Origin: Candidatus Woesearchaeota archaeon
GTDB taxonomy: Archaea; Nanobdellota; Nanobdellia; SCGC-AAA011-G17; PNOQ01
Reading direction: 5' to 3'
Assembly (NCBI GenBank): GCA_964481835.1
Contig: CAYZTT010000003.1
Span: 1-48,751 of the forward strand
DNA length: 48,751 nt
In this document: one piece after another, positions 3,798 through 38,054 of the stretch
Layout: each line of letters opens with the position of its first letter
Position numbering within the stretch: the stretch's first letter is position 1
Notes under the pieces: generated by a model
Told to the model about the DNA's origin: nothing
Seen by the model: the letters and a program-made list of their open reading frames with translations, nothing else
The model's database searches: none
Translations under genes and position numbers: made by a program

Positions 3798-3870
3798 GGC
3801 GGTGGTAGTATAGTGGTTAGTACGGAGGCCTGTGGCGCCTCAGACCGGGGTCCGATTCCCCGTCACCGCT
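3798..3870 (+). tRNA. tRNA-His (anticodon GTG), atypical copy
   Basis: Manual cloverleaf. Encoded G-1 (3798); acceptor GCGGTGG/TCACCGC; U8; D stem GTAT/GTAC with one G-U pair. Anticodon stem GAGGC/GCCTC with loop CTGTGGC. T stem CGGGG/CCCCG. The T loop is TCCGATT (C at position 55) and the discriminator is T. No encoded CCA; followed by a T run. TATA-like TTTTAAAA at 3762-3769. Confidence 0.7.
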
Positions 3871-3913
3871 TTTTTATCAAAAACTACTTAAATTAGAGAT
3901 TTAATTTATTGAT

Positions 3914-4669: not shown

Positions 4670-4744
4670 GGCGGCGTTGGTTTAACGGTAGAACGTAGGA
4701 TTGTGGATCCTATAGTCCGGGTTCGATTCCCGGGCGCCGTCCCA
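4670..4744 (+). tRNA. tRNA-His (anticodon GTG), canonical copy with G-1:C73 and encoded CCA
   Basis: Manual cloverleaf. G-1 (4670); acceptor GCGGCGT/GCGCCGT; D stem GTTT/GAAC. Anticodon stem TAGGA/TCCTA with loop TTGTGGA. T arm CCGGG-TTCGATT-CCCGG. Discriminator C, then CCA, then T6 (4745-4750). Confidence 0.9.
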
Positions 4745-8597: not shown

Positions 8598-9746
8598 TTA
8601 TATTGCTTTTAAGTTATTGAGGTAATTAATAGTGCTTCGGGATTCTAGGTATTTAAGGTCAAGTCTTGTAAAGGAGATATAGTTGTATTCATCCCTTTCC
8701 CAGAGTATGCCAATTGTTTTGTCTGAGAGTATCGTCAAATCTGAATATGCGGCAGGTTCGAGGGCAACCATTAGTTCTTTGGGGAAGGTTTCTCCTTCAT
8801 CATAGCTAATTTTGGCTACTAGGTTGTTCCTTTCAGGACCTTTGGGTCCAGACCAAATAATTCGATCTCGATCATCATTCTCTGCTTTAAGTGTTAACCT
8901 TTCAATAGAAGAACTGCATGCAATGGCTTTCCTACTTTGGAATGCTTCTGACCAGGTCTCGCCCCTATCGTCACTAATTGCTTGTAACCTGATATTTCCG
9001 GATACCTGGCGTATATCCATGAGGATTCGACCGTCGTTTAATTCGACTAACTGATTTTCATTTCCTTGATGGCCTCTGGGAACAAATTCTCCCCTGTGCC
9101 AAGTTTCTCCATGATCATCACTGTAAATGGTAAATATATTGTAGGGGGTTTTCCAAGCAGGAAATAGTAATCGTCCATCACTAGTTTGTATGGCCCCCCC
9201 GGGCCCGATTATACTAGAATTCCAATTCCCATCTTCCATGTCCCTAGAAATATTTGTTAAATCGATTTGACTTGACCACGTCAATCCATTGTCTTCGCTG
9301 AAACGTGCAATGGTCTTTAGATCATCTGTCTTTGGTCTTGATGTAAGTGTGCTTTTGCCTGGCTTAGATTGATAATACAACACCCAAACTTTGTTGGTTT
9401 CTTTATCCACAAGTGTTGTAGGATTGGCGGCAGACCAAGCTTCGCCGGGGTCATCGATAACTTCCATTTTTGACCAGCTTTTTCCACTATCTGTACTTCT
9501 TTTTAGGACAAGATCAACATCTTGCTGACCAAATCCCGGATCTTGGCGACCATATTTGCGTGCCTCGGCAAAAGCAAGAAGCGTTCCGTCTGGGGCAGTT
9601 TCAATTGCAGGAATACGATAAAACCAGTACCCTTCCCCCGCAGTATAGACATCGACTTGTTCAACTAAAGAGGGCTGTTGGTTGGTAAGAATTGTGCTTA
9701 CTATTATTAGAATCAATATTATAAAAGCGAATGCAAATTTTTTCAT
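8598..9746 (-). CDS. membrane-anchored exo-alpha-sialidase-like glycoside hydrolase (GH33/BNR beta-propeller)
   Basis: N-terminal TM/signal (FAFAFIILILIIVSTIL). RIP motif in WFYRIPAIETAPDG. Five Asp-boxes (SxDxGxTW): STDSGKSW, SEDNGLTW, SDDHGETW, SDDRGETW, SYDEGETF. Confidence 0.8.
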   Translation of the reverse strand: MKKFAFAFIILILIIVSTILTNQQPSLVEQVDVYTAGEGYWFYRIPAIETAPDGTLLAFAEARKYGRQDPGFGQQDVDLVLKRSTDSGKSWSKMEVIDDPGEAWSAANPTTLVDKETNKVWVLYYQSKPGKSTLTSRPKTDDLKTIARFSEDNGLTWSSQIDLTNISRDMEDGNWNSSIIGPGGAIQTSDGRLLFPAWKTPYNIFTIYSDDHGETWHRGEFVPRGHQGNENQLVELNDGRILMDIRQVSGNIRLQAISDDRGETWSEAFQSRKAIACSSSIERLTLKAENDDRDRIIWSGPKGPERNNLVAKISYDEGETFPKELMVALEPAAYSDLTILSDKTIGILWERDEYNYISFTRLDLKYLESRSTINYLNNLKAI

Positions 9747-10120: not shown

Positions 10121-11314
10121 ATGAAAAAAGAAGTGATTTTCTTGATATTCCTAGTTATTTGTATGCCTATATCTAATGCGAAGGTTTTGGAGATTCCTAA
10201 TGTCGGGGACAACGAAGAACCCGAACCCTTGAGAGACAGTATTGGAGTTAAGAAATTTGTTTACGCAGGGAATAATATTGTTGCTTCTGTTAAAGATTCT
10301 GAAATAAAATATTATCATAATGGTAGATTAAGTAATAGATTGACAACCAATTCGGCGGGGAATTTGCAAAAATTTAAATCGCTACCCTTTGGCCAGAAAG
10401 TTTCGAATTCCGGGGTAGATTACCCATTTACTGGAAAAGAGGAGGATGAAAGCTCTTTGTATTATTTTGGAGCCAGATATTATGATGATAATTTAGGGAG
10501 GTTTATAAGTGTGGATCCTGTTGAAGAAAATCATGCATATGCGTATGTGGAGAACAATCCAATGAATAAAATAGATCCAAATGGAATGGAAAGCTGGACA
10601 TTGAATCAGCAGAACATATTTGAGGAGCCGCCGGCATGGGTTGGCGAGAAAGTTGGAGAGGTAATATATAATTCTTTGTGGGGGGATGTTAGAGATACTA
10701 ATTCAGAGATAAGATTTTATAATCTCCCTTTTGATGCTTATGGTTTTTCTAACTCTGGAACCGGGGGGGCTTGGGTAGACTTTGGAAGTGGAAATTTGGT
10801 TAATGGCATGGGGATCCATATGTATGAAGATATTGATTTAAGGAGAATGGCGGGAGAATTAAGCTATTTAGAAGATTTGAATGAGAATAAGGAAGAGATT
10901 GCAATTTCGACGATACTTGCCTTGGCAGCGTATGGTATTGCTGCCTCTCCCAGAGGGGTAAAACCTGGAGGGAATTCGCTGAAGGTGGATATTTCCAAAG
11001 CTAATCGGCAAAGTGGTTCTTGGCTTAAAGGCGATTGTCCAAATAGAGTTCCGCCTTGTCAAAATGCCCGATGTACAGATCAAGCGATGCGTTCGGGGGA
11101 ACTCAATGCAAATTCGGGGGGAGGATATAGTCCGCAGGCCAGATATGCTTCTAGGCATGCCCAAAAGATTGCGACAGAGTGTTTTGAGAGTGGAGTTAAT
11201 TGTCCGCTTGCAGGATCATTGGATGAAGCTCTTTCCCTTTTGGAGCAACTAGAGGCACAAGCATATCAACAACAGTTGGCGTTACCTGCTGTTGTGGAGG
11301 GTGTGGAGTTTTAG
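10121..11314 (+). CDS. secreted polymorphic-toxin-like protein 1: signal peptide + minimal RHS repeat-associated core + unique 241-aa C-terminal domain
   Basis: Signal MKKEVIFLIFLVICMPISNA. Core YYHNGRLSNR...SLPFGQ...YPFTGKEEDESSLYYFGARYYDDNLGRFISVDPVEENHAYAYVENNPMNKIDPNGM (RHS-core pattern RYYDxxxGRFxxxDP...NxYxYxxNNPxxxxDPxG). Similarity to the paralogs ends at nt 10588. Confidence 0.8.
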   Translation: MKKEVIFLIFLVICMPISNAKVLEIPNVGDNEEPEPLRDSIGVKKFVYAGNNIVASVKDSEIKYYHNGRLSNRLTTNSAGNLQKFKSLPFGQKVSNSGVDYPFTGKEEDESSLYYFGARYYDDNLGRFISVDPVEENHAYAYVENNPMNKIDPNGMESWTLNQQNIFEEPPAWVGEKVGEVIYNSLWGDVRDTNSEIRFYNLPFDAYGFSNSGTGGAWVDFGSGNLVNGMGIHMYEDIDLRRMAGELSYLEDLNENKEEIAISTILALAAYGIAASPRGVKPGGNSLKVDISKANRQSGSWLKGDCPNRVPPCQNARCTDQAMRSGELNANSGGGYSPQARYASRHAQKIATECFESGVNCPLAGSLDEALSLLEQLEAQAYQQQLALPAVVEGVEF

Positions 11315-11383: not shown

Positions 11384-12544
11384 ATGAAAAAAGAAGTGAT
11401 TTTATTAGTGTTTTTTATCTGTATACCTATTTCTTATGCAGAGGTTATTGATATTCCAGAAACAGGCATGCCTCCTGGTTCGGAAGGGAGATTTGGAACT
11501 ACTAGGTTTGTTTATGCTGGGAATGATATTGTTGCTAGTATCCATGATTCCTATACAAGATACTTTCATCGAGATAGATTGAGTAATAGATTGTTGACTG
11601 GTTCGGTTGATGAAGATATTAGGATGTTTAAGTCGCTGCCTTTTGGGCAAGAAATTGAGAACCAAGAAATAAGTTATCCATTCACTGGAAAAGAGGAAGA
11701 TGAAAGTTCTTTGTATTATTTTGGTGCTAGATACTATGATGACAATTTAGGGAGATTTACTGGCGCAGATCCTGTTTTGGAGAATCATGCTTATTCGTAT
11801 GTTAGAAATAACCCAATGAACCTTATTGATCCTACCGGGATGGATGATAGCAAGGCAAATAAAGTGGAATCCCTGTATTTTTATTCTGTAGATACCTCTG
11901 GGATTTCAAGATACCGGCCCATAGACATGAATCCTCTTTTTATAGATACTTTTGCGACTGATCCTTCAGACACAACTAATATGCGCAGATTTGAAGATTA
12001 TTTAGATTCTATGATTGTCGCAGCTTCTCAAGACACTACTGGGGGCGGGGGCCAATTTGGAGTGGCGGATAGATCTGATTATTATTCTGCTATCTATTTA
12101 GCCGAACCAGATACATTGCATGCAGTTTCTTCATATGATCTTAGTGCAATCCCCATTATTGTGAAGGAATTTGCTGAACAAAATTCTCCTATTGAAAATC
12201 TTATTATTACATTTCATGGCATGCCACTTGATTCGATATGGCAGGCCAATTCAGGCATTGCACAAGATTATGCAGTCTTTGCACAAGCTTCGGATAGTAC
12301 CGCATCCCTTTATTCTGCGGAATCTATGAATGAGATTTTCTTTAACATTGATCCTGCACACCTTGCAGACAATTCTAGGATAATATTTGGGACATGTTAT
12401 GGTTCCTTTTGTGTTGATTCTCAAGCAATCGCAGATTCATTAGATACATCTGTTTATACTGCCACTAGTACTGTTACTGAGAACATACTTATTTATCCCA
12501 CATTAGTTTGGGGAAATTATGATCGGTATCATCCTAAAAATTAG
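11384..12544 (+). CDS. secreted polymorphic-toxin-like protein 2: signal peptide + minimal RHS core + unique 233-aa C-terminal domain (possible His/Cys peptidase)
   Basis: Same N-terminal module (YPFTGKEEDESSLYYFGARYYDDNLGRFTGADPVLENHAYSYVRNNPMNLIDPTGM, ending at nt 11842). The C-terminus is unrelated to copies 1 and 3 and contains LIITFHGMP ... RIIFGTCYGS. Confidence 0.8.
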   Translation: MKKEVILLVFFICIPISYAEVIDIPETGMPPGSEGRFGTTRFVYAGNDIVASIHDSYTRYFHRDRLSNRLLTGSVDEDIRMFKSLPFGQEIENQEISYPFTGKEEDESSLYYFGARYYDDNLGRFTGADPVLENHAYSYVRNNPMNLIDPTGMDDSKANKVESLYFYSVDTSGISRYRPIDMNPLFIDTFATDPSDTTNMRRFEDYLDSMIVAASQDTTGGGGQFGVADRSDYYSAIYLAEPDTLHAVSSYDLSAIPIIVKEFAEQNSPIENLIITFHGMPLDSIWQANSGIAQDYAVFAQASDSTASLYSAESMNEIFFNIDPAHLADNSRIIFGTCYGSFCVDSQAIADSLDTSVYTATSTVTENILIYPTLVWGNYDRYHPKN

Positions 12545-12548
12545 ATTA

Positions 12549-12953
12549 TTATTTCAAATCAACCCTTCTGTACTCAGGGGAAAATTCTGCCTTGCCATCT
12601 TCAACATTTACAACGTACTTTATCTCTAATATGAAATCTTGGTCCCCATAAGTTATTTGGTAAAGATATCCTGGATCAGTATCCAATCCGTTTGGGATGC
12701 TATCTAATCTTCCTGTAGCCAATAGACTGTCTAGAGAATCAATTCTTTGTGCTACTTCTTGGCCAAACTCTATTTCATCCATCCTGGTAGCCAAATAGTG
12801 ATTTAGGGCGATTTCAAGGAATAAATCTTCAAAATTAGGGCATTGGGCACTTTGTACTGTTTCTTGTGTGCTTGGTGCTGAAATTGCGGGAGAAGCTATC
12901 CCTAGCGCTAAGGTAGATAATGTTAATCTCCCAATTAATGCTCCTTTTTTCAT
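12549..12953 (-). CDS. secreted hypothetical protein (134 aa)
   Basis: Signal-like N-terminus MKKGALIGRLTLSTLALGIASPAISA. Acidic mature part with no known motif. Convergent with toxin 2, 4 nt apart. Confidence 0.5.
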   Translation of the reverse strand: MKKGALIGRLTLSTLALGIASPAISAPSTQETVQSAQCPNFEDLFLEIALNHYLATRMDEIEFGQEVAQRIDSLDSLLATGRLDSIPNGLDTDPGYLYQITYGDQDFILEIKYVVNVEDGKAEFSPEYRRVDLK

Positions 12954-13095
12954 CTTAATCTTGTTTTCTAGGCATTATTTATAAGCCTTTCTATTTGTTG
13001 TTTATATTAGTGGTAACACTTCATTTTTAAGTAAAATCTAAGAAATTGAATTTTGGCTGCAGGGGCCTTGAAATGGCCAAATTCTGGCAGAAAGC

Positions 13096-13103
13096 TTTAT
13101 AAA
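13096..13103 (+). promoter_or_regulatory. TATA box (TTTATAAA) upstream of gyrB
   Basis: The octamer lies 40 nt upstream of the gyrB ATG. A second TATA-like GTATAATTTATAG sits nearer the start. Confidence 0.35.
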
Positions 13104-13143
13104 CAAAGGGGTATAATTTATAGTACTTTTAGGGGAAATTTGA

Positions 13144-15048
<1,905 letters not shown>

Positions 15049-22184: not shown

Positions 22185-22706
22185 ATGAGTCCCAAAGAAC
22201 ATAGAGTTTCGGATTATGCATGGAAATTGGCTAGCGGAGCATATGATATCGCAGGCGAGGAGGCCCCTGAAGACATTGACCTGGAAGTTGATGACTTAGA
22301 TATTATCGGTGATCCGATTTTGAGGGTATTTGTTCGAACTTTTCAAGAGGCAGGATTTAGACCAGATTTAAGATATTTTTCTCTTGATGACCTCGGCGAT
22401 GCTGGGCTTAAAATGGAATATCGCTTTGGTGAAGGGGATCCTTATTTGGAAAGCCCCGAAGATGCGGCATATAGGATGCTTGCAGTTGTAGATTTAGAAC
22501 ACAGATTTGTTAGTGAAGTTGATTTAAATGTTAGATCTAAGCGAGAGGGGATGGGTAGAAAACTTGTTGAAGCTAAGGAAGAACTTTGGAGAATGCTGGG
22601 CATTGAAGAGGTTTTTTTAGGTACTATTGATCCAAGTGATGCTGCAATACAATTTTGGAGCGCAATGGGTTATGATGTCTCTACATGCTATAAGAAATTA
22701 GATTAA
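22185..22706 (+). CDS. hypothetical acidic protein with weak GNAT-acetyltransferase-like C-terminus
   Basis: ORF taken from the ATG at 22185. C-terminal REGMGRKLVEAKEELWRMLGIEEVFL...AIQFWSAMGYD resembles GNAT motif A (R/Q-x-x-G-x-G/A ... F-Y/W-x-x-x-G-F/Y). G+C-richer than the core genes by eye. Confidence 0.4.
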   Translation: MSPKEHRVSDYAWKLASGAYDIAGEEAPEDIDLEVDDLDIIGDPILRVFVRTFQEAGFRPDLRYFSLDDLGDAGLKMEYRFGEGDPYLESPEDAAYRMLAVVDLEHRFVSEVDLNVRSKREGMGRKLVEAKEELWRMLGIEEVFLGTIDPSDAAIQFWSAMGYDVSTCYKKLD

Positions 22707-23137
22707 TCTTGTGTGGAACGTTCCCAAGCAACTTCTCCGTCACTATTTGTGTCTCTCAACGTTACGTTTTGTCGCCCACTCAGAATTCTTAGATTTGGAT
22801 TGTCTGATCGAAATTGATTTTCATACTGGGCAAATGATACGTTATATCCACCATGGTCCCCTTCTCCTGCGTAGGCTGAAGATTTACCATCTTGAATCAT
22901 ATACCAATCTGAAGGAGTAGATCTTGTTACGGTCGGGGCATTTGCTAGATGTTCTTGAGCTAGTCTACTTAACCTCATATCTTCCCTTATTTGAGGGATT
23001 GCCATTGCCGCGATTACTGGAAGAGCAAGCAACGTGGTTAAACCAAAAATTCTTCCCCAATTTGCTCCGTCTATACTAGTTATGGTTGGATATTGATCCC
23101 TTTGGGGATTTTCTGGATTGTGTATTTCTTTTGACAT
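22703..23137 (-). CDS. membrane-anchored hypothetical protein (144 aa, one TM, extracytoplasmic C-terminal domain)
   Basis: TM helix FGLTTLLALPVIAAMAIPQI. TTTATAAA at 23167-23174 lies 30 nt upstream of the ATG. No known motif. Confidence 0.5.
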   Translation of the reverse strand: MSKEIHNPENPQRDQYPTITSIDGANWGRIFGLTTLLALPVIAAMAIPQIREDMRLSRLAQEHLANAPTVTRSTPSDWYMIQDGKSSAYAGEGDHGGYNVSFAQYENQFRSDNPNLRILSGRQNVTLRDTNSDGEVAWERSTQD

Positions 23138-23219: not shown

Positions 23220-24467
23220 ATGAAAAAGGGAGCGATTATTCTGATTTTTTTGATCATTTGTATATCTATTTCGCATGCGAGAGTCATTTATGTTCCAGGG
23301 GTAGAAGAACCTGAACAACTCAGAGATGAATTTGGGACAAAGAAGTTTGTTTATGCGGGCAATAATATTGTCGCGTCTGTTAAAGATTCTGGGGTTGAAT
23401 ATTATCATCAAGGAAGGTTAAGTAATAGGATTACTACGGATTCTGGAGGGGTCAAAGAGAGTGAATTTAAATCATTACCTTTTGGACAGAATGTTTTGAA
23501 CACAGGAGTTGATTATCCGTTTACTGGGAAGAAAGAGGATGAAAGTTCTTTGTATTACTTTGGAGCGAGATATTACGATGATAATTTAGGCAGGTTTATT
23601 TCTGTTGATCCTGTTAGAGAAAACGAGCCCTATTCTTATGTTAGAAATAATCCAATTATGCTAGTGGACCCCACCGGAATGGATGAAGAAGGGGTTCCCC
23701 CTGTTATGTCTCATGAATTTGGTATTGATCACCTAATGAATCAAGAAACACAGGATTTCTTGAATAGAAATGACCCTGAGTATATGATGAATAGATTTTA
23801 TGAAGAAAGATATCTCCAAATGGAACAAGGGAAAGAACAATTAAATCTCATTGTACCCTATAGGTCGCTCAGACGAATAAATGAAGCCCACATGCGCGGT
23901 GAGCAAGCAGATGTTGGAGATTATGTTAACTTCATTTCCGCAGGAATGCTATGGGCCACTGGATTGATAAAAGCAGGAAATGCAATGAGAGGGTTATCTT
24001 TTGGTAGATTAGGTAGTGTCCGAACACCAAGCAATTTAGGCAGAGGTATGCCTGTAAGAAGCAGCAATCTAATTGAATCTCTTGAAACTGGATTAAAAGG
24101 CGAAAGAAAGAGTTTACCTGAAGTATTGAAAGTATTTGATGATCATTTAGCATCAGGAGCCTTGGATCCAATTTCTCATCAAGCATATGTTGAAGGAACT
24201 GTAGAGCTGGCGTTCACTGAAGTGCAAGGCCATGTAGTTTCTCCGCATACTGCCGCAAGGCTTATGGTCAGAGCTTCACAGAATGGCCTGGCTACTAATG
24301 CTGCATCACCTGCTACAGGTGGTCGAAACATAATGAGTAGCATTCTATCTGAAGGTAAACAAACAGTATATAGCAATGGAGCCATCGAATACAACTTAAA
24401 TAATAATCTCTTGATTATTAGAGAACCTGAAACTAGTATGATTTCAACATTCATAAGTAGACAATAA
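23220..24467 (+). CDS. secreted polymorphic-toxin-like protein 3: signal peptide + minimal RHS core + unique 261-aa C-terminal domain
   Basis: Signal MKKGAIILIFLIICISISHA. Core YPFTGKKEDESSLYYFGARYYDDNLGRFISVDPVRENEPYSYVRNNPIMLVDPTGM ends at nt 23681. The C-terminus is unrelated to copies 1 and 2. Confidence 0.8.
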   Translation: MKKGAIILIFLIICISISHARVIYVPGVEEPEQLRDEFGTKKFVYAGNNIVASVKDSGVEYYHQGRLSNRITTDSGGVKESEFKSLPFGQNVLNTGVDYPFTGKKEDESSLYYFGARYYDDNLGRFISVDPVRENEPYSYVRNNPIMLVDPTGMDEEGVPPVMSHEFGIDHLMNQETQDFLNRNDPEYMMNRFYEERYLQMEQGKEQLNLIVPYRSLRRINEAHMRGEQADVGDYVNFISAGMLWATGLIKAGNAMRGLSFGRLGSVRTPSNLGRGMPVRSSNLIESLETGLKGERKSLPEVLKVFDDHLASGALDPISHQAYVEGTVELAFTEVQGHVVSPHTAARLMVRASQNGLATNAASPATGGRNIMSSILSEGKQTVYSNGAIEYNLNNNLLIIREPETSMISTFISRQ

Positions 24468-29433: not shown

Positions 29434-29873
29434 AAAATTTTGATTTATTAAATAGCAAGGAAATAAAGAAATTAAATAAGCAGTTAAAAGAACAATTTGG
29501 AAACGAATTTGATTTTAAGGAATATTTGGTTTATAGAACTCCGAAAGATAGAATCTATATTGTTAGTAGGGAATTTGGGGAACATGATTTTTCTAAGATT
29601 AGAATTAATAATGTTGGTTTGTATTTTTTGAGTATTGTGAAAGATGGAGTTAGATTGAGTATTGATGGTTCCCAATTGTTTAAACCAAAGAAAAATGTTT
29701 TAGAATTAACTAAAAAGGATTTTGAGAAGTGGATGACTGGGGAAGATTTAAACTTGGAAATGGAGAATGGATATTTTTTGATTAAGTATAAGAATGAGTT
29801 CTTAGGTTGTGGAAAGAGTAATGGCGAAAAGATTTTTAATTATGTTCCTAAAGCTAGAAGAGTTAAATTTTAG
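29430..29873 (+). CDS. PUA-like RNA-binding protein (Nip7 / RsmF C-terminal-like)
   Basis: DRIYIVSREF and the C-terminal GYFLIKYKNEFLGCGKSNGEKIFNYVPKARR resemble the pre-PUA+PUA module of Nip7/RsmF-type proteins. ATGA overlap with gltX. Confidence 0.5.
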   Translation: MKNFDLLNSKEIKKLNKQLKEQFGNEFDFKEYLVYRTPKDRIYIVSREFGEHDFSKIRINNVGLYFLSIVKDGVRLSIDGSQLFKPKKNVLELTKKDFEKWMTGEDLNLEMENGYFLIKYKNEFLGCGKSNGEKIFNYVPKARRVKF

Positions 29874-30352
29874 AATTTAAACGCTAATCCGGCAGATGCT
29901 CTGCTTCTTGGGTGGCCCCATTTGAATAGATCATCTTCTCCGAATGCCTGTGTTATGTCAAATCTGAATTCTGAATTATCTGAAAGTCCTAAGCCCAGTC
30001 CTAGGTCGAGTAAAGTTGCGTTTCCGTTTGGTCCACCTTGTGTCACTTTTCCTCTTCGCAGACCTTGTCTTAATGATACTGGGCCAATTCTTTCCCTGGC
30101 GCCAACACCGAAGGACCTACATGATCTTTTTAAAAATCCTTCTGCTAGAAATTCACTTGTTAATCCAATTTCTAAACCACTTGTGAGTTCCTTGTAAGCC
30201 TCTAAATCAAGCGAATAGTGTCTTTCTCCACTCTCTGAAGAATTATAGCCGGTATTTATGCCGATGTACTTGTTTATGGGCCCCGCTATTGCGCTTGCAG
30301 CCCATAATGTGGTTGCTAGGATTGCTGTTCCTAATCTAAGAGCGTATTTCAT
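29870..30352 (-). CDS. secreted beta-rich protein resembling a bacterial 8-stranded outer-membrane beta-barrel (OMP_b-brl-like)
   Basis: Start set at the ATG at 30352, with TTTATAAA at 30376-30383, 24 nt upstream. Signal MKYALRLGTAILATTLWAASAIAG. First strand YIGINTGY, alternating hydrophobic pattern, and the OMP-type C-terminal signature AGLAFKF with terminal Phe. Confidence 0.45.
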   Translation of the reverse strand: MKYALRLGTAILATTLWAASAIAGPINKYIGINTGYNSSESGERHYSLDLEAYKELTSGLEIGLTSEFLAEGFLKRSCRSFGVGARERIGPVSLRQGLRRGKVTQGGPNGNATLLDLGLGLGLSDNSEFRFDITQAFGEDDLFKWGHPRSRASAGLAFKF

Positions 30353-30413
30353 TTTTATTAAAAAACACGACAACTCTTTATAAATCTTTCTATTTTTAAC
30401 TACTATTTAGTAA

Positions 30414-31160
30414 TTAAAATATTTCTGATAGCCAGGAGAAGAATTTTGCTAGGATATTTGGGCTTTTTTGGACAGTTTTTTTATCTGAAGAGGCATATGG
30501 CCTTAGGCTATAGATATTTTGATTGCCCTCGCCCTCTTTACAATCTGGATCTAGATAGTCTAGGCAATCGGGATCACATTTTTTATCTTTTTTTCCATCG
30601 CAATATGTATCCTTTTCGCCGCTTGGACAATCTGATGGGCAATTTTTGTTGTTCTCTCTAATTTTTCCATTACAATAGCCATCTTCTTTACATTTGATTT
30701 CTAAATATTTTTTCTCAGAACTTGTGATTGTTATATCTCCTGAAGAGTCTTTTACTTGTATTTCTGGTAATTCTATTGTTCCGGAACTTGGGATTATTTC
30801 ATAGATAGTTTCTATTGTTATCTCCTTAGTTTCCTTGGGGCCAATTGTTAATGTGTACTCTAAATAGGGTTCTCTGATATCCGTTTCTGTGTGTTTTTTT
30901 ATTTCTGCTCCGATACTTGAAGTTATTGATTCTCCCATAGCATAGTTTGTGTCTCTTGTAATTTTAATTTCTTTTTCTATATCTTCTAAGTTTTCTATTA
31001 TGAATGAAAGTTCTATTGGTTCATTTACTATTGCGCTTGTTTTTGTAGATTCGAAATACTTTGCATTCATCGTTGCAGCGTGAGTGCTTGTTGCTAGAAG
31101 GATTAATAATAAAGTCCCAGTGATTAGTTTTGCTTTTTTATGTTCCATTTTTATTCGCAT
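30414..31160 (-). CDS. secreted protein with Cys-rich C-terminal module (alternative start 31148)
   Basis: Signal AKLITGTLLLILLATSTHA. A beta-rich middle region. C-terminal CKEDGYCNGK...CPSDCPSGEKDTYCDGKKDKKCDPDCLDYLDPDC echoes the DPDC-type Cys motifs of the upstream giant protein. Overlaps or abuts its stop. Confidence 0.6.
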   Translation of the reverse strand: MRIKMEHKKAKLITGTLLLILLATSTHAATMNAKYFESTKTSAIVNEPIELSFIIENLEDIEKEIKITRDTNYAMGESITSSIGAEIKKHTETDIREPYLEYTLTIGPKETKEITIETIYEIIPSSGTIELPEIQVKDSSGDITITSSEKKYLEIKCKEDGYCNGKIRENNKNCPSDCPSGEKDTYCDGKKDKKCDPDCLDYLDPDCKEGEGNQNIYSLRPYASSDKKTVQKSPNILAKFFSWLSEIF

Positions 31161-34100
31161 TCCAATCTGTCACAGTTTTCACTTGAACAGATATTTCCTC
31201 CGCTATCTATCAATGCCCCATCTTCGTTTTGACAGTATATCTCTTGACTCTGGTCACTTATAATCTCATTCCCATATAGTGTTAGGAATAAGTAATTATC
31301 TTCAATATAATCCTCTATATCTATGCAGATTTCGCAGCCTATACCGTTTTCTATTTTATTCTGAATTATATTTTCCGTTAAGTGTATTCTTTCATTGTCG
31401 TATACAGTTCTACCATCGTGAGAATAACCACTTATGTTTATAGTGGTGTTTATTAATTCGTTGTATGAGACTGAGGTTTTATTTGAATTTTCTATTAATA
31501 TACCAACTCTTGGGATTCCCTGATTACTTATGATTTTATTGCTTGTTATCCAAGTGCGCTCAGGTCCGATTTCCTTTGCTTTTATTGAGATTATATTATT
31601 TTTTAGTATGTTGCTACTCAACACATTTTGATACGGTGATTCTGAGGTTACCTCTGGGAAATTAACTCCAACCCCCCAATTAGAAAGATTCAGATAGTCG
31701 ACTCCCACATCTCCGTGCCCGTTGAAATCTATCCCGATTTTTGAGTTGCAATTTGGCCCTACACAGTTTATTTGGGTTTCTCCTTGATCAAGAGCTATTA
31801 TCTCTATATCATCTGCACCGATGACTATGCCTTCTTCGAGGTTGAAAACCCCTGGACAGAATGTTGTACTTTCGGTTAGTATCATGCCGCTTGTAGGTGT
31901 GGTGTAACTGCAGGCATCTGAGCAATCTAAGTTATCGCAATTATCACTGTCACATATGTTTGAACCATAATGGGCATCTACTATTGGCTCTGCAGGGTTT
32001 TGGCAATAGATATCTATGTTTCCATTGTTTGAAATTGTGTTTTGGGCGATTTTTACAAACCTTTCTTCCTCGAGAGAGTTTAGGTTTATCTTTATACCAT
32101 GGTTGAGAGTATCGAAATCGTTTTCTATAGTGTTGTTCTCAACTTTTATCCCATCTGTATTTGAACCCTCGAGAGTAATCATAGAGTTTTTTATTATATT
32201 ATGACTTATTTTGCTATATTCAGAAGGATTTCCTGTGACATTGATTAAATGTATTTCGTTTGGCCTGCTTGGGTCATCACTATTAAAATTGGAATACCAT
32301 ACTTCTATGCTTGAGTTCTTTACACCCGTCTTTATTGCTTTTATACTATTATTTATTGTGATTTCTTCTATATCTACTTCTGGAGATACTTCAGTTTCAT
32401 CTCCTTCCTCATGTGTTTTTATGCCAGTCCCCCATCCGTTTAAAGTTATATCCCTTATGGATATTCCATCTTTCCCATTTGTGTTTATGCCTGTTTGCGA
32501 ATCGCAATTTGGGCCTATGCAGTTTATGATTGCTCCATTTCCATCTATCTCTTGTCCATCTAATAGGAATGTTAAGCCTTCTTCTAGATTGTATTCTCCT
32601 GGACATAGGTAAGTTATTTCATCGGTTAATATCAATCCGTCCTGGGGGATTGTGTCCATGCAGGCCAAGTCGCAACCATAAATATTTTCTCGGGCCCAAT
32701 AATCTGCCTCGTAGTCTGAAAAATCGAAGTGTTGGTTTTCGTGTCCTATTTCAAATCTTACATCAAATAATCTGGGTATTTCGCCGATATCCCAACAATA
32801 ATGTATGTTGGTGCCTAAGACACTTTGAGCAACAGCGTCTGCCACATTTTCGACCTTCTTTCCATAATCATATACAACCCATTTTCCAACTTCAAAATCA
32901 TATATTAGATTCCAGGTGTGAAATCCTCCTCCTATAGAGAGTACTAGATCTCCGTCTTGGTCGTTGGCTGGGAAATATCCCGTTTTCCTTAGTAGCGAGG
33001 TTGCTGCAAATGACCAATCATCGCACACACCAGTTTTTAGTGTTGCTAAGGTTGTTTTTGCTGGCTGTTCCCTGTGTTTACATAATCCCGGAGTTCTAGG
33101 TCCAGGGCAATCCATATATTGTACTTCTTCACCGAAGACGTAAAGAGTGTCCCAATCATAGTAGGGATTTGCGCAATGGTTATTCTCGGGGGAATGATTC
33201 CCCCATCCCTCTTGACAGGCATCTTCGAATCTGCCCCTTAATGGGTTGTACCAACCCATGTCTTGTACCTCGCAGCAATATTCTGGGGTGAAATAGTTCC
33301 ACATCCATAATTCGTCATCTAGGTGGTGGATGGGCCTTTTAAAGCCCCAATTTAGATTGGTTTCTATATATTCCCTTAGGCATCCCGTCATTCTCCTTTG
33401 GTGAGTTGGGTATTGGAAAGAATTAAGTTTTGCGTGATAGCAAATTTCTGTGTTTCTATTGTTGATAATTCTCATATCCCCTGGTTCGTTTTCACAACAG
33501 TCTAAGGCGTCATCTATTATATAATCCATATAATTTGCTTCTTCGTCTTCAATGTCGCTTCTTACAGTCATTAAACTACAAGAATCTCTTTCTCCAGATT
33601 CAGTAAACCAGTTGTATAGGTGAACTACATAGTTTCCTTGGTAATTGCTCACACAATTTGTATCTTCTGGTTCGTGGGGAGTTATACATTGGCAATTATA
33701 ACAAAATCCTTCATTACAATCTTCCCCATAAGGCTCACACTCTTCTCCAATAGTTATTTCTTCTTCGAGGCTCTCAAATGTAATTGTTTCGGTCGTTACT
33801 TCCCCATCTCCGCAATAAAAACCCATTATTTTATTCGAATTTGTTTTTCCCACGTTTAATGTGCCTTCAATATTTTCAAAAAAGCAATCTTCACGATCAC
33901 ATAATAGGTCATATTCGGTGTTGTTTTCTATGTAATTGTATCCATCTATTTCTACACCCCATGCTTTCAGATACAGGCCAACGTGGGCGTTATCTCTAAT
34001 TATGTTGTTTCGTAGACGTATATCTCCTACTTTATCGAATAAGAGGGCTGAACGATACCTTGGGACTATAGTTCCTGCGCCGGCAAACAAACCTTCAGTG

Positions 34101-35569
34101 CCGTTTGGGTTATTCCCTTGAAATTTGTTTCCTTCTAGGAATACATCTTCTGATTCGTAACCCCAGATTGCTCTTGAGAATCTTTCTAGGGTCATTCCTT
34201 CTAAATGAGTTTCGTTTGAGAAATAGATATGTACCCCATCACCATAGCCGGTCATATTTAGATTGCATCCTTTTATTGTTGTATTTTTTCTATAACTAAT
34301 GTCTATTGTTGGATTTGGGTTGTATCCATACGGGTTGTTTATAATTATGTTTGTATCATCACACTCAACCCTTATGTTGTCTTCTTGGATTGTTAACCAG
34401 TTGTCTTCATAATCATAATCTAGATAATAGTCTCCTTCGCAGAAGTAGGTGTTTTCTGTTATGACCATATTTTTTTCAGGCACTATACAGCAGTCTTTAT
34501 CATTGTAAAAATTACAACCTATCCCGCAACAGCCATTTTTGTAAGAATAACTGCAATAACAGTCTGGATCGTTTCCGCTGCATCCTTCTGGGCAATTTCC
34601 GTTGCAACCATCGGATTCACAATCTTCTTCACACATTTCATCGGATTGGCATAAATCTATATTTTCTTCCGGATTCCACCAACAACCGTACATGTATAGC
34701 TCATTGCAAGGTTCTTCGTTCATGAAACAGAAATTTGGATCCTCTTGGTCGTAACAGACATCGCATTCTCCAACTAAACCTTCTCCCGCACAGAATCCCC
34801 AGCCGGGTAGATGGGTGCATGAGTTCTCGATGCATTCTTTATGGGCATTTTGACATTCACAATTTGGAAGTTCTTCTTCCATTTGGTCGCAGCCAGATAT
34901 TTCAATTTTACATTTGTCGGAACCTTCACAGAGATCTAGTTCCGGGCACGAAAACTCAAGGAAATTCCCTGCGGGGAGATCCTCATCTGTGCACTCTCCT
35001 CCATAATATGCACAATCATAGTCACATTGACCGTTTACACAATCATACCCTGCAGCACAGGCAATACCACAACCTCCGCAGTTATTTTCATCTGTTTGAG
35101 GATCTACACATTCTGGGCCACATTCAAACCAATCCTCTGGACAATCTAGGACACATGAACCATATTCGCAAATCATGTTGTCTCCGCAAGGTTGGCCTTC
35201 GCAACCTTCTTGGGAACAATCTTCGTAACAGTCAAGACAGCTTTCTTCCGTCATACATTTTTGTATGCAGCCTTCCGGAATGCCTCCTTGACCAGGGCTA
35301 TATTGGGGATCTTGGGGAGGACTATTCTGATCCCCCGGAATAAATTCTTTTTCTTGCATAAGCTCATCAGAGAAAATATCTCCTGTACAAGACCTAACAT
35401 ATTTCATCTCCCAATCACTACAATCACCCAATCCACAACCTTGGGGTGCCCAAGGAGTACAGTCTCCACAGTCTCCGGATTTTTGAATTCCTTTCAAATC
35501 TAGTTGATCACAAGAACTAATAATAAAAACACTGAGAATTAAAATTGTCAAATATATTTTTTCTTTCAA
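31151..35569 (-). CDS. giant (1472 aa) Cys-rich predicted surface lipoprotein: three right-handed beta-helix modules plus a transglutaminase-like cysteine-protease core
   Basis: Signal plus lipobox LILSVFIISSC (Cys20). Aa 21-360 extremely Cys-rich (CxxC, DPDC, EGF-like spacing). Beta-helix-like repeats (NNIIRDN, HNIIKNSMITLEG, VENNTIEND, NTISNNGN) in three homologous modules starting at about aa 361, 970 and 1221. Transglutaminase-like triad context GVCDDWSFAATSLLRKTG (C849), GGFHTWNLIY (H884), VVYDYG (D901). Confidence 0.8.
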   Translation of the reverse strand: MKEKIYLTILILSVFIISSCDQLDLKGIQKSGDCGDCTPWAPQGCGLGDCSDWEMKYVRSCTGDIFSDELMQEKEFIPGDQNSPPQDPQYSPGQGGIPEGCIQKCMTEESCLDCYEDCSQEGCEGQPCGDNMICEYGSCVLDCPEDWFECGPECVDPQTDENNCGGCGIACAAGYDCVNGQCDYDCAYYGGECTDEDLPAGNFLEFSCPELDLCEGSDKCKIEISGCDQMEEELPNCECQNAHKECIENSCTHLPGWGFCAGEGLVGECDVCYDQEDPNFCFMNEEPCNELYMYGCWWNPEENIDLCQSDEMCEEDCESDGCNGNCPEGCSGNDPDCYCSYSYKNGCCGIGCNFYNDKDCCIVPEKNMVITENTYFCEGDYYLDYDYEDNWLTIQEDNIRVECDDTNIIINNPYGYNPNPTIDISYRKNTTIKGCNLNMTGYGDGVHIYFSNETHLEGMTLERFSRAIWGYESEDVFLEGNKFQGNNPNGTEGLFAGAGTIVPRYRSALLFDKVGDIRLRNNIIRDNAHVGLYLKAWGVEIDGYNYIENNTEYDLLCDREDCFFENIEGTLNVGKTNSNKIMGFYCGDGEVTTETITFESLEEEITIGEECEPYGEDCNEGFCYNCQCITPHEPEDTNCVSNYQGNYVVHLYNWFTESGERDSCSLMTVRSDIEDEEANYMDYIIDDALDCCENEPGDMRIINNRNTEICYHAKLNSFQYPTHQRRMTGCLREYIETNLNWGFKRPIHHLDDELWMWNYFTPEYCCEVQDMGWYNPLRGRFEDACQEGWGNHSPENNHCANPYYDWDTLYVFGEEVQYMDCPGPRTPGLCKHREQPAKTTLATLKTGVCDDWSFAATSLLRKTGYFPANDQDGDLVLSIGGGFHTWNLIYDFEVGKWVVYDYGKKVENVADAVAQSVLGTNIHYCWDIGEIPRLFDVRFEIGHENQHFDFSDYEADYWARENIYGCDLACMDTIPQDGLILTDEITYLCPGEYNLEEGLTFLLDGQEIDGNGAIINCIGPNCDSQTGINTNGKDGISIRDITLNGWGTGIKTHEEGDETEVSPEVDIEEITINNSIKAIKTGVKNSSIEVWYSNFNSDDPSRPNEIHLINVTGNPSEYSKISHNIIKNSMITLEGSNTDGIKVENNTIENDFDTLNHGIKINLNSLEEERFVKIAQNTISNNGNIDIYCQNPAEPIVDAHYGSNICDSDNCDNLDCSDACSYTTPTSGMILTESTTFCPGVFNLEEGIVIGADDIEIIALDQGETQINCVGPNCNSKIGIDFNGHGDVGVDYLNLSNWGVGVNFPEVTSESPYQNVLSSNILKNNIISIKAKEIGPERTWITSNKIISNQGIPRVGILIENSNKTSVSYNELINTTINISGYSHDGRTVYDNERIHLTENIIQNKIENGIGCEICIDIEDYIEDNYLFLTLYGNEIISDQSQEIYCQNEDGALIDSGGNICSSENCDRLECE

Positions 35570-35669
35570 ACTATCACCTTTTTAGTAATTTTACTTATTT
35601 ATTTTAGATTTATTAATATATCGTTTTATCAACGAAAAACCTTTTAAATGTCTCTATATTTAGAAATTC

Positions 35670-36272
35670 ATGAAGGACAAGATAAAAGAAGCCTTAAAGG
35701 CGTATGATAAAATAGCTTCTATTTATTCTGATTATAATTATGAGAAAGTTATGCAATTCCAGCTTATGAAGTTTGTTTCTTTGTTAAAAGGAAAGCGAGT
35801 TTTGGATGCTGGTTGCGGCGTTGGGAGAGATGTAGAGTACCTTATGGAAGACGGCTTGGAAGTTAAGGGAGTTGATATTTCTGAAAATATGATTAAACAA
35901 GCCAAGAAAAATGTTTCTAAGGGGAAGTTTGAGGTCATGGATTTCAGGAAGATGAAATTCAAAGATGGTTCTTTCGATGGCATTTGGGCAATGGCGAGCG
36001 TTTATCATATCCCGAATAAAGAAATTGTCGATACCTTTAAGGAATTTTTTAGAGTTTTAGATAAAGCTGGGTTGTTATATGTTTCTGTTTATGAGGGAGA
36101 GGGTAGTGAGGAGAGGAAGGATCCAACTGTCGGGGAGGTTAGAACCTTTTACTCTTACAAAGAGGATGAAATGAAAGAAAAACTAGAAGAAGCAGGTTTT
36201 ACTATTATTAGAAGTGAAGTTAATCAAACTGAAGATCGCAAATGGTTGGAAGTTTATGCTAGGAAAGAATAA
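35670..36272 (+). CDS. class I SAM-dependent methyltransferase
   Basis: Motif I VLDAGCGVGRD, post-I VKGVDISENM, and motif II-like FDGIWAMASVYHI. Confidence 0.8.
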   Translation: MKDKIKEALKAYDKIASIYSDYNYEKVMQFQLMKFVSLLKGKRVLDAGCGVGRDVEYLMEDGLEVKGVDISENMIKQAKKNVSKGKFEVMDFRKMKFKDGSFDGIWAMASVYHIPNKEIVDTFKEFFRVLDKAGLLYVSVYEGEGSEERKDPTVGEVRTFYSYKEDEMKEKLEEAGFTIIRSEVNQTEDRKWLEVYARKE

Positions 36273-37661: not shown

Positions 37662-38054
37662 TTAAGCTTTTTCTTTTAGAACTAGATAGAAGATGAGTAG
37701 AACCCCAATAACGTTGAAGGAGTCCGCGATATTGAAGATTGGCCAAACTTGAAAATCTATGAAATCTCTGACGTGTCCCAAAAATAGCCGATCAATTAGA
37801 TTTCCGATCGTTCCTGCAAATAGAAAGGATAGGGGGATTCGTAACTTTTTTTCTTTTTTTGCTAGGAAAAATATGAAAATAGCTACTAAGAAGGAAATTA
37901 TTGTTAATAAGACAATCTGATTTTGGAATAATGAGAATGCGGCACCGGTGTTTGTAGTGTAATTTATGAATAAAAAGTGTTTGTTGGTGAATACTATCTT
38001 TGTTATTTGATCCAGGATAATTATAAAAATTGAGATTAGGAAAAACTTTTTCAT
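37662..38054 (-). CDS. lspA: lipoprotein signal peptidase (signal peptidase II)
   Basis: LspA motifs in order: ILDQITK, NTGAAFSLF, GTIGNLIDRL, HVRDFIDF, IFNIADSFNVIG. Four TM segments. Confidence 0.85.
   Translation of the reverse strand: MKKFFLISIFIIILDQITKIVFTNKHFLFINYTTNTGAAFSLFQNQIVLLTIISFLVAIFIFFLAKKEKKLRIPLSFLFAGTIGNLIDRLFLGHVRDFIDFQVWPIFNIADSFNVIGVLLIFYLVLKEKA

Follow-up and report, generated by a model that had tools for sequence, protein, structure and literature searches.

A predicted lipid-anchored surface protein that joins beta-helix modules to a transglutaminase-like domain in a Woesearchaeota-type archaeon

Little is known about the ways in which DPANN archaea and Patescibacteria attach to partner cells and feed on them, and a chemistry has been assigned to very few surface proteins of these organisms. 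Among the closest described systems is that of another DPANN archaeon, whose predicted surface proteins of 908-1320 amino acids (aa) also contain parallel beta-helix repeats and were proposed to attack the glycosylated wall of the host; separate peptidase-like surface proteins of the same archaeon were proposed to degrade the host surface layer (S-layer). The description of the 908-1320-aa proteins includes Ig-like folds and numerous N-glycosylation sites but no thiol-enzyme domain. In contrast, a 1472-aa protein encoded in a 48,751-nucleotide (nt) stretch of Candidatus Woesearchaeota archaeon DNA (contig CAYZTT010000003.1 of assembly GCA_964481835.1, positions 1 to 48,751; referred to here as the window) appears to combine beta-helix modules and a thiol enzyme in one lipobox protein, a comparison made by description only. 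The explanation that we favor, with a probability of about 0.55, is that this is a lipid-anchored, disulfide-stabilized, glycan-binding surface thiol enzyme of a marine Woesearchaeota-type (DPANN) archaeon that acts on a cell envelope.

The gene was first noticed in an initial annotation made from the sequence alone, which identified it as the largest in the window and proposed a signal peptide with a lipobox (IISSC), a region of about 340 aa that is dense in Cys, three internally homologous modules with a parallel beta-helix fold and a transglutaminase-like Cys-His-Asp core, in a domain combination that it did not recognize. Each of these elements was recovered in the analysis described below, and the sequence motifs and coordinates that had been quoted were correct. 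The gene and its parts, in the order of the protein, are as follows.

31151-35569, minus strand: whole gene, 1472 aa plus stop, first of a three-gene cassette, intact in independent assemblies
35510-35569, minus strand: predicted signal peptide with lipobox, aa 1-20 (MKEK followed by a hydrophobic core and I-S-S-C20)
34502-35509, minus strand: acidic Cys-rich region, aa 21-356 (49 Cys; 22% Asp plus Glu; no N-glycosylation sequons)
33803-34501, minus strand: beta-helix module 1, aa 357-589 (scores 21.5 bits with NosD over aa 395-556)
32672-33763, minus strand: disulfide-rich enzyme-type domain, aa 603-966 (a Cys-rich, mainly helical N-terminal part precedes the transglutaminase-like core)
32861-33076, minus strand: transglutaminase-like core, aa 832-903 (C849 at 33023-33025, H884 at 32918-32920, D901 at 32867-32869)
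31913-32674, minus strand: beta-helix module 2, aa 966-1219 (ortholog region above the Pfam Beta_helix threshold)
31154-31924, minus strand: beta-helix module 3, aa 1216-1472 (lacking in P0002 and P0003, the two orthologs)

Only two proteins in a search of 5.8 billion shared the overall build of the 1472-aa protein. P0002 (1187 aa) is 48% identical and lacks module 3, and its NCBI copies are named 'hypothetical protein [Candidatus Woesearchaeota archaeon]'; P0003 (964 aa) consists of the Cys-rich region, module 1 and the enzyme-type domain, followed by a different Cys-rich tail. All other matches in that search shared just a Cys-rich piece of about 70 residues. A scan of a genome collection with the alignment of the three sequences gave one match, a metagenome-assembled genome (MAG) of Woesearchaeota.

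The domain between modules 1 and 2 is the part of the protein that points to an enzyme. The motifs GVCDDWSF, FHTWNLIY and VVYDYG occur at aa 847-903 (nt 32861-33031), within the range given in the initial annotation, and the match of the query to Transglut_core (model positions 38-107 of 108, aa 832-901) spans the Cys, the His and the Asp. When a profile of this domain (aa 600-968 of the three orthologous proteins) was compared with 1.84 billion representatives with HMMER (E ≤ 0.001), only 26 proteins (clusters) matched. Residues G847, C849, R861, H884 and N887 were invariant in an alignment of 23 sequences (23/23) that included relatives as divergent as 26% identity to the query; nine further Cys were invariant or nearly so, and residue 901 was Asp in 20/23. 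An invariant Cys and His and a near-invariant Asp across such divergent sequences are the pattern expected of a working active site. At E ≤ 1, Transglut_core was matched by 13/23 members and DUF553 ('Transglutaminase-like domain') by 6/23, and two relatives scored above the Pfam thresholds: P0016 on Transglut_core (24.1 bits; threshold, 23) and P0009 on DUF553 (24.9 bits; threshold, 20.5), with E values of 9e-29 and 1e-51, respectively, against the domain profile. The N-terminal ∼230 residues of this domain are mostly helical and include the motifs DYIIDDAxDCC and YFxPEYCC, and no family or structure match was found for this part.

The predicted structure of the enzyme-type domain was consistent with the sequence matches. 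An AlphaFold (AF2) model based on the 3-sequence alignment was discarded (predicted local distance difference test [pLDDT], 30.7), and the model used was based on the 23-sequence alignment (pLDDT, 78.8; predicted template modeling score, 0.86). In this model the Cys opens a helix (residues 250 to 263 in domain numbering), and the His and the Asp are on the two long strands that come next (residues 285 to 292 and 297 to 302), which is the arrangement of the transglutaminase/papain core. In a Foldseek search of the PDB, the best match was yeast PNGase (3esw_A; probability, 0.98; E value, 0.048; root mean square deviation [rmsd], 2.2 Å over 76 columns), followed by a second yeast PNGase structure (1x3w_A; probability, 0.84) and then by menin, the MOA protease domain, USPs and Rad4/XPC. 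The top matches all belong to the transglutaminase/papain-like group. Searches in other directions were not productive: Foldseek against viral structures gave weak USP-like matches and nothing useful, phmmer with the whole protein against PDB sequences gave only chance matches to flavivirus prM, and the matches of the whole-domain and 80-residue-core profiles to plasmepsin X and an IS605 OrfB-type transposase were considered to be due to chance. The results suggest that a transglutaminase-like fold is very probable and, given the invariant Cys and His, that the domain is likely to be an active thiol enzyme.

Ten of the 26 enzyme-domain clusters were looked up for names. Two of them carried 'Candidatus Woesearchaeota' or 'Candidatus Pacearchaeota' names, and one, P0010, came from a Patescibacteria-group MAG. 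None of the ten had transglutaminase in its name, the names being 'hypothetical' or 'beta-helix repeat protein', which agrees with the initial impression that the domain combination is unusual. Dockerin, PKD, Big_7, DUF4215 or beta-helix domains accompany the enzyme domain in its relatives, and these partners therefore indicate an extracellular setting. In the Patescibacteria MAG (L005:3445-5997 and 11633-14755), the P0010 gene is directly downstream of a gene for a VirD4/TrwB-like type IV coupling protein, and nearby are genes for a Pel9A-like beta-helix/GHL15 protein, a CBM-containing protein and other beta-helix and glycoside-hydrolase-like proteins.

The modules that flank the enzyme-type domain are related to each other. 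Modules 2 and 3 share 31% identity over 265 columns (E = 6e-30), the kinship of module 1 with modules 2 and 3 is weaker (E = 2e-5 to 5e-4), and one profile, built from the three modules and the ortholog modules (A6, six modules), matched all three. The corresponding region of P0002 scored 27.4 bits on Beta_helix (threshold, 25.9), and that of P0003 scored 33.1 bits on NosD (threshold, 23.6). When A6 was compared with a profile of the beta-helix domains of P0010, P0006 and P0014, the hhalign probability was 98.2% (E = 4e-14); P0010 itself scored 51 bits on Beta_helix. A6 also matched the solved structures of NosD (7o0y; E = 0.0015) and pectate lyase (7xks; E = 0.0073). Because of this homology to validated and solved beta-helix domains, the prediction that the three modules are right-handed parallel beta-helices is supported. 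A role of the NosD type in copper/nitrous oxide reductase maturation was rejected: the neighborhood is free of nos genes, and what the modules have in common with NosD is the fold alone.

The N-terminus of the protein suggests how it may be anchored. It consists of MKEK, 13 hydrophobic residues and I-S-S-C20, with MKEKIYLTILILSVFIISS directly followed by the lipobox Cys, and a lipobox is conserved in both orthologs, in which the Cys and the two preceding positions (S/N, S) were retained. Several other relatives also open with lipobox signals (VISGC in P0013; FIGGC in P0005 and P0006). The sequence meets the published lipobox pattern [LVI][ASTVI][GAS]C (PMC12462473). A candidate for the processing enzyme is encoded 2 kb from the large gene.

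37662-38054, minus strand: signal peptidase II (LspA-type) gene, likely the lipobox-processing enzyme, syntenic in all three genomes

The 130-aa LspA-type protein scored 101 bits on Pfam Peptidase_A8; on TIGR00077 lspA, its score was 71.5 bits, below the threshold of 73.95. It has GNLIDR and FNIAD, the two Asp motifs of LspA. Its counterparts in the related loci are at L001:2879-3256 and L002:5221-5613. More than 1000 relatives were detected at E ≤ 1e-10; of the 120 that were listed, many are about 130 aa long, are named 'signal peptidase II' and come from Woesearchaeota or Nanoarchaeota MAGs. From these features we infer that the 1472-aa protein is lipidated and cleaved at Cys20 by the LspA-type peptidase encoded nearby.

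The protein contains 96 Cys (6.5%), compared to 0.60% in all other open reading frames (ORFs) of the window. The Cys residues are most dense at aa 21-356, where they make up 14.6% of residues with a median Cys-Cys spacing of 5.5 residues, in agreement with the Cys-rich region described at the outset. This region is strongly acidic (22% Asp plus Glu versus 3% Lys plus Arg). Within it, aa 106-195 are Stig1/MXAN_6577-like, and a piece with the pattern CNGNCPxGC...DPDC lies at aa ∼316-361. The Stig1/MXAN_6577-like module is weak and below threshold (NF041328, 24.4 versus 100), as are the scores of the orthologs on Stig1 (22.1 and 17.7 versus 24.1), and the rest of the 336-residue region had no family match.

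The gene order lspA, tyrS, yjbQ, methyltransferase gene, large gene, ∼250-aa gene, ∼165-aa gene, PUA-domain gene and gltX is common to the three loci. The large gene is the first of a conserved three-gene cassette, the other two genes of which in the window are as follows.

30414-31160, minus strand: second cassette gene, 248 aa, predicted to be secreted, with a Cys-rich ENNKNCPSDC...DPDC piece; P0012 combines a homolog of it with the enzyme domain
29870-30373, minus strand: third cassette gene, 167 aa, with a predicted signal peptide, ending ...SAGLAFKF

The start of the second gene overlaps the end of the large gene in all three genomes, by 10 nt in the window. The 248-aa protein has a signal sequence followed by a region without a family match in addition to its Cys-rich piece. 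A single 810-aa protein, P0012, consists of a homolog of the 248-aa protein (39% identity over 184 residues; E = 6e-35) with the enzyme domain fused downstream of it. The fusion and the overlapping frames suggest that the 248-aa protein and the enzyme domain work together. Identity among the three genomes was 67 to 92% for the flanking genes, 44 to 48% for the large protein, 41 to 46% for the 248-aa protein and 28 to 31% for the 167-aa protein, and whole modules were gained or lost between the large proteins. The cassette is therefore at a fixed place yet diversifies much faster than its flanks. The 167-aa protein is syntenic and had no family match; its end, SAGLAFKF, is reminiscent of the signature at the C-terminus of outer-membrane beta-barrels in bacteria, an odd feature in an archaeon. 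Similar short tails occur at the C-termini of the 248-aa protein (NILAKFFSWLSEIF) and of the subtilisin-like and beta-helix proteins P0005 and P0006 (SELSFWQGILNFFNL and SELSFWQRILNFFKK), and these may be a common anchoring or sorting signal.

The window has a GC content of about 36% and is archaeal in origin, as both the 3' end of an archaeal large-subunit rRNA and an archaeal RNase P RNA are present. The ORF at 31151-35569 is the longest in it and starts with TTG, immediately upstream of which is a possible ribosome-binding site.

35573-35580, minus strand: Shine-Dalgarno-like AAGGTGAT, separated from the TTG by 3 nt, as seen in the upstream sequence

The public gene call (P0001) starts 6 codons later and gives a protein of 1466 aa. 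The longer, 1472-aa form is preferred because the orthologs keep the Lys-rich MxxKIYL n-region (MGNKIYL and LKNKIYL).

The metagenomic origin, the great length and the internal repeats of the ORF could indicate an assembly chimera or a decaying pseudogene, and the initial annotation had named frameshifts and assembly artefacts as points to check. None were found. In each of two independent marine metagenome runs, one contig of 7166 nt extends across positions 30300-35800, with 0 and 3 substitutions relative to the window and no indels or joints, which rules out an artefact or a frameshift; two more runs cover the large gene piecewise. Furthermore, full-length orthologs are present in the same synteny, and the module repeats are just 31% identical at the protein level and therefore too diverged to mislead an assembler. 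The probability of a chimera or pseudogene is thus negligible.

If the protein is a surface thiol enzyme, its parts would fit together as follows. The signal peptide would direct export, and the lipid on Cys20 would hold the protein at the cell surface. The acidic Cys-rich region would form a knotted stalk, and the three beta-helix modules would be rigid arms that bind glycans or a surface. The thiol enzyme domain, with its Cys849-His884-Asp901 triad, would most likely hydrolyze amide bonds of an extracellular envelope substrate, as a protease or an amidase. A plausible target would be the glycosylated layer on the surface of a partner cell or of the archaeon itself, and the 248-aa secreted protein, presumably co-transcribed, may work with the enzyme domain. 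The rapid diversification of the cassette fits an exposed interaction surface. Several observations weigh against this explanation. The query itself is below threshold on Transglut_core (13.2 bits when the full-length protein is scored and 16.0 bits when only the domain is, versus 23) and on NosD (21.5 versus 23.6); residue 901 is Asn or Ser in 3/23 family members; the domain and core sequence profiles matched no solved transglutaminase-like protein; and the Foldseek E values are weak (best, 0.048) because just a core of about 80 residues aligns (∼76 to 82 of 369). The fixed position among housekeeping genes would also be in keeping with a core component of the envelope instead of a factor for host interaction. 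None of the words of the gene were found in metatranscriptomes of the same study, which is uninformative as to expression either way.

An alternative is that the protein is a true transglutaminase, forming isopeptide cross-links that mature the archaeon's own envelope or covalently tether it to surface proteins of a partner. The fold and the triad are those of cross-linking transglutaminases, a covalent tether would be useful to an organism that lives attached to another, and the lipid anchor and long rigid arms would place the domain at the cell-cell interface. Both transfer and hydrolysis would fit the present data, but the best fold match is the amidase PNGase and not a transglutaminase, and most prokaryotic transglutaminase-like proteins were reportedly predicted to be hydrolases by Makarova, Aravind and Koonin in 1999, so that a cross-linking role appears unlikely. 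Slightly less probable is that the protein is a structural, S-layer-type envelope component or a pure adhesin in which the transglutaminase-like domain is a noncatalytic binder, as in menin or Rad4/XPC. Such noncatalytic folds are among the structural matches, and a large, acidic, lipid-anchored, repetitive protein encoded by a single-copy gene that in three genomes occupies the same place between housekeeping genes might be expected of a structural component. However, the retention of the catalytic residues in archaea and bacteria alike argues against a mere binder, and the metatranscriptomes, in which no words of the gene were found, gave no sign of the abundance expected of an S-layer protein. 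Beta-helix domains of the NosD (CASH) type are typically carbohydrate binding. Together with the two best fold matches, both to yeast PNGase, this suggests a PNGase-like deglycosylating amidase, in which the beta-helix would bind the N-glycans of an S-layer and the thiol domain would cut the glycan-asparagine amide bond. Yet only the shared ∼80-residue core aligns (TM score, 0.16 to 0.19), the other parts of PNGase are unmatched, and fold matches do not discriminate within the superfamily; it seems very unlikely that the activity is that specific. An envelope-directed thiol enzyme of the hydrolytic type is the explanation that best accommodates these observations.

All parts of the 1472-aa protein belong to known superfamilies. 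What is new is a rare, divergent, disulfide-rich family with a transglutaminase fold that is confined to DPANN and Patescibacteria and is not so named in the members that were looked up, the insertion of its enzyme domain between beta-helix modules of a lipobox protein, and a fast-evolving three-gene cassette with fusion-linked components. No description of the enzyme-domain family was found in literature on DPANN archaea with transglutaminase, Cys-rich, cell-surface or beta-helix proteins. With its intact Cys-His-Asp site, arms of a glycan-binding type and lipid anchor, the protein is a concrete candidate for expression, and the linked 248-aa partner gene provides a second handle. The lineage restriction of the family and the evolution of the locus, faster than that of its flanks, both fit a molecule at the cell-cell interface, and the neighboring LspA-type gene bears on how archaeal lipoproteins are processed. 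A more far-reaching proposal, which must be regarded as doubtful, is that the ∼365-residue disulfide-rich domain represents a new extracellular enzyme family, common to ultra-small episymbiotic lineages of two domains of life (DPANN archaea and Patescibacteria), that, with the 248-aa partner, cuts or covalently engages the envelope of the partner cell during attachment; the hypervariable cassette would then be a host-range determinant.

Other features of the window were also noted. Three paralogous secreted proteins are encoded at 10121-11314, 11384-12544 and 23220-24467 (all plus strand). Their N-terminal ∼155 residues are conserved and end in NPMxxIDPxGM, after which unrelated C-termini of about 230 residues follow, and with TIGR03696, the model of the RHS repeat-associated core, the N-terminal part of the protein at 11384-12544 scored 69.9 bits, above the threshold of 32.5. 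This build is that of polymorphic toxins, here in a DPANN archaeon. Small unannotated ORFs adjoin two of the paralogs (12549-12953 and 22703-23137, both minus strand) and could be candidate immunity genes. The gene at 8598-9746 (minus strand) encodes a secreted BNR/sialidase-like beta-propeller protein (BNR_2, 99 bits), a candidate glycan-acting surface protein. Two tRNA-His(GTG) genes within 1 kb (3798-3871 and 4671-4744, both plus strand) flank a gene for a 200-aa membrane protein.

Compared with known systems, the modules are homologous to the fold family of NosD/CASH-type proteins (PF05048, PF13229; 7o0y, 7xks). In contrast to those proteins, each module here is short (∼235 to 255 aa) and carries a Cys-motif cap (IYCQN...C..NC..L.C), and the three copies flank an enzyme domain; nothing links the protein to nitrous oxide reductase maturation. 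The Cys-rich region weakly resembles Stig1/MXAN_6577-like modules (PF04885, NF041328) at aa 106-195, but all scores are below the curated thresholds; the same piece of ∼70 residues (up to 67% identity) is also C-terminal in the subtilisin-like and beta-helix proteins P0005 and P0006. The enzyme domain shares with the transglutaminase-like superfamily (PF01841, PF04473) the ordered Cys, His and Asp, the GxC at the start of a helix and the His and Asp on the following strands, and two of its relatives pass the Pfam thresholds. An extracellular location and fusion to surface repeats, predicted here, are also found in many archaeal members of that superfamily. It differs in that the query itself is below the thresholds of the superfamily models, in that the core is embedded in a disulfide-rich domain of ∼365 residues and in that the family comprises just 26 clusters, in DPANN and Patescibacteria as judged from the ten that were looked up. 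The best structural match of the core is yeast Png1 (3esw, 1x3w; rmsd, 2.2 to 2.5 Å over 76 to 82 columns; 18 to 20% identity), with which the core alone is shared; there was no similarity to PNGase beyond this core and no sequence-level match to PNGase chains. Whereas Png1 is cytosolic and works with Rad23, the 1472-aa protein is predicted to be extracellular, lipid-anchored and Cys-rich.

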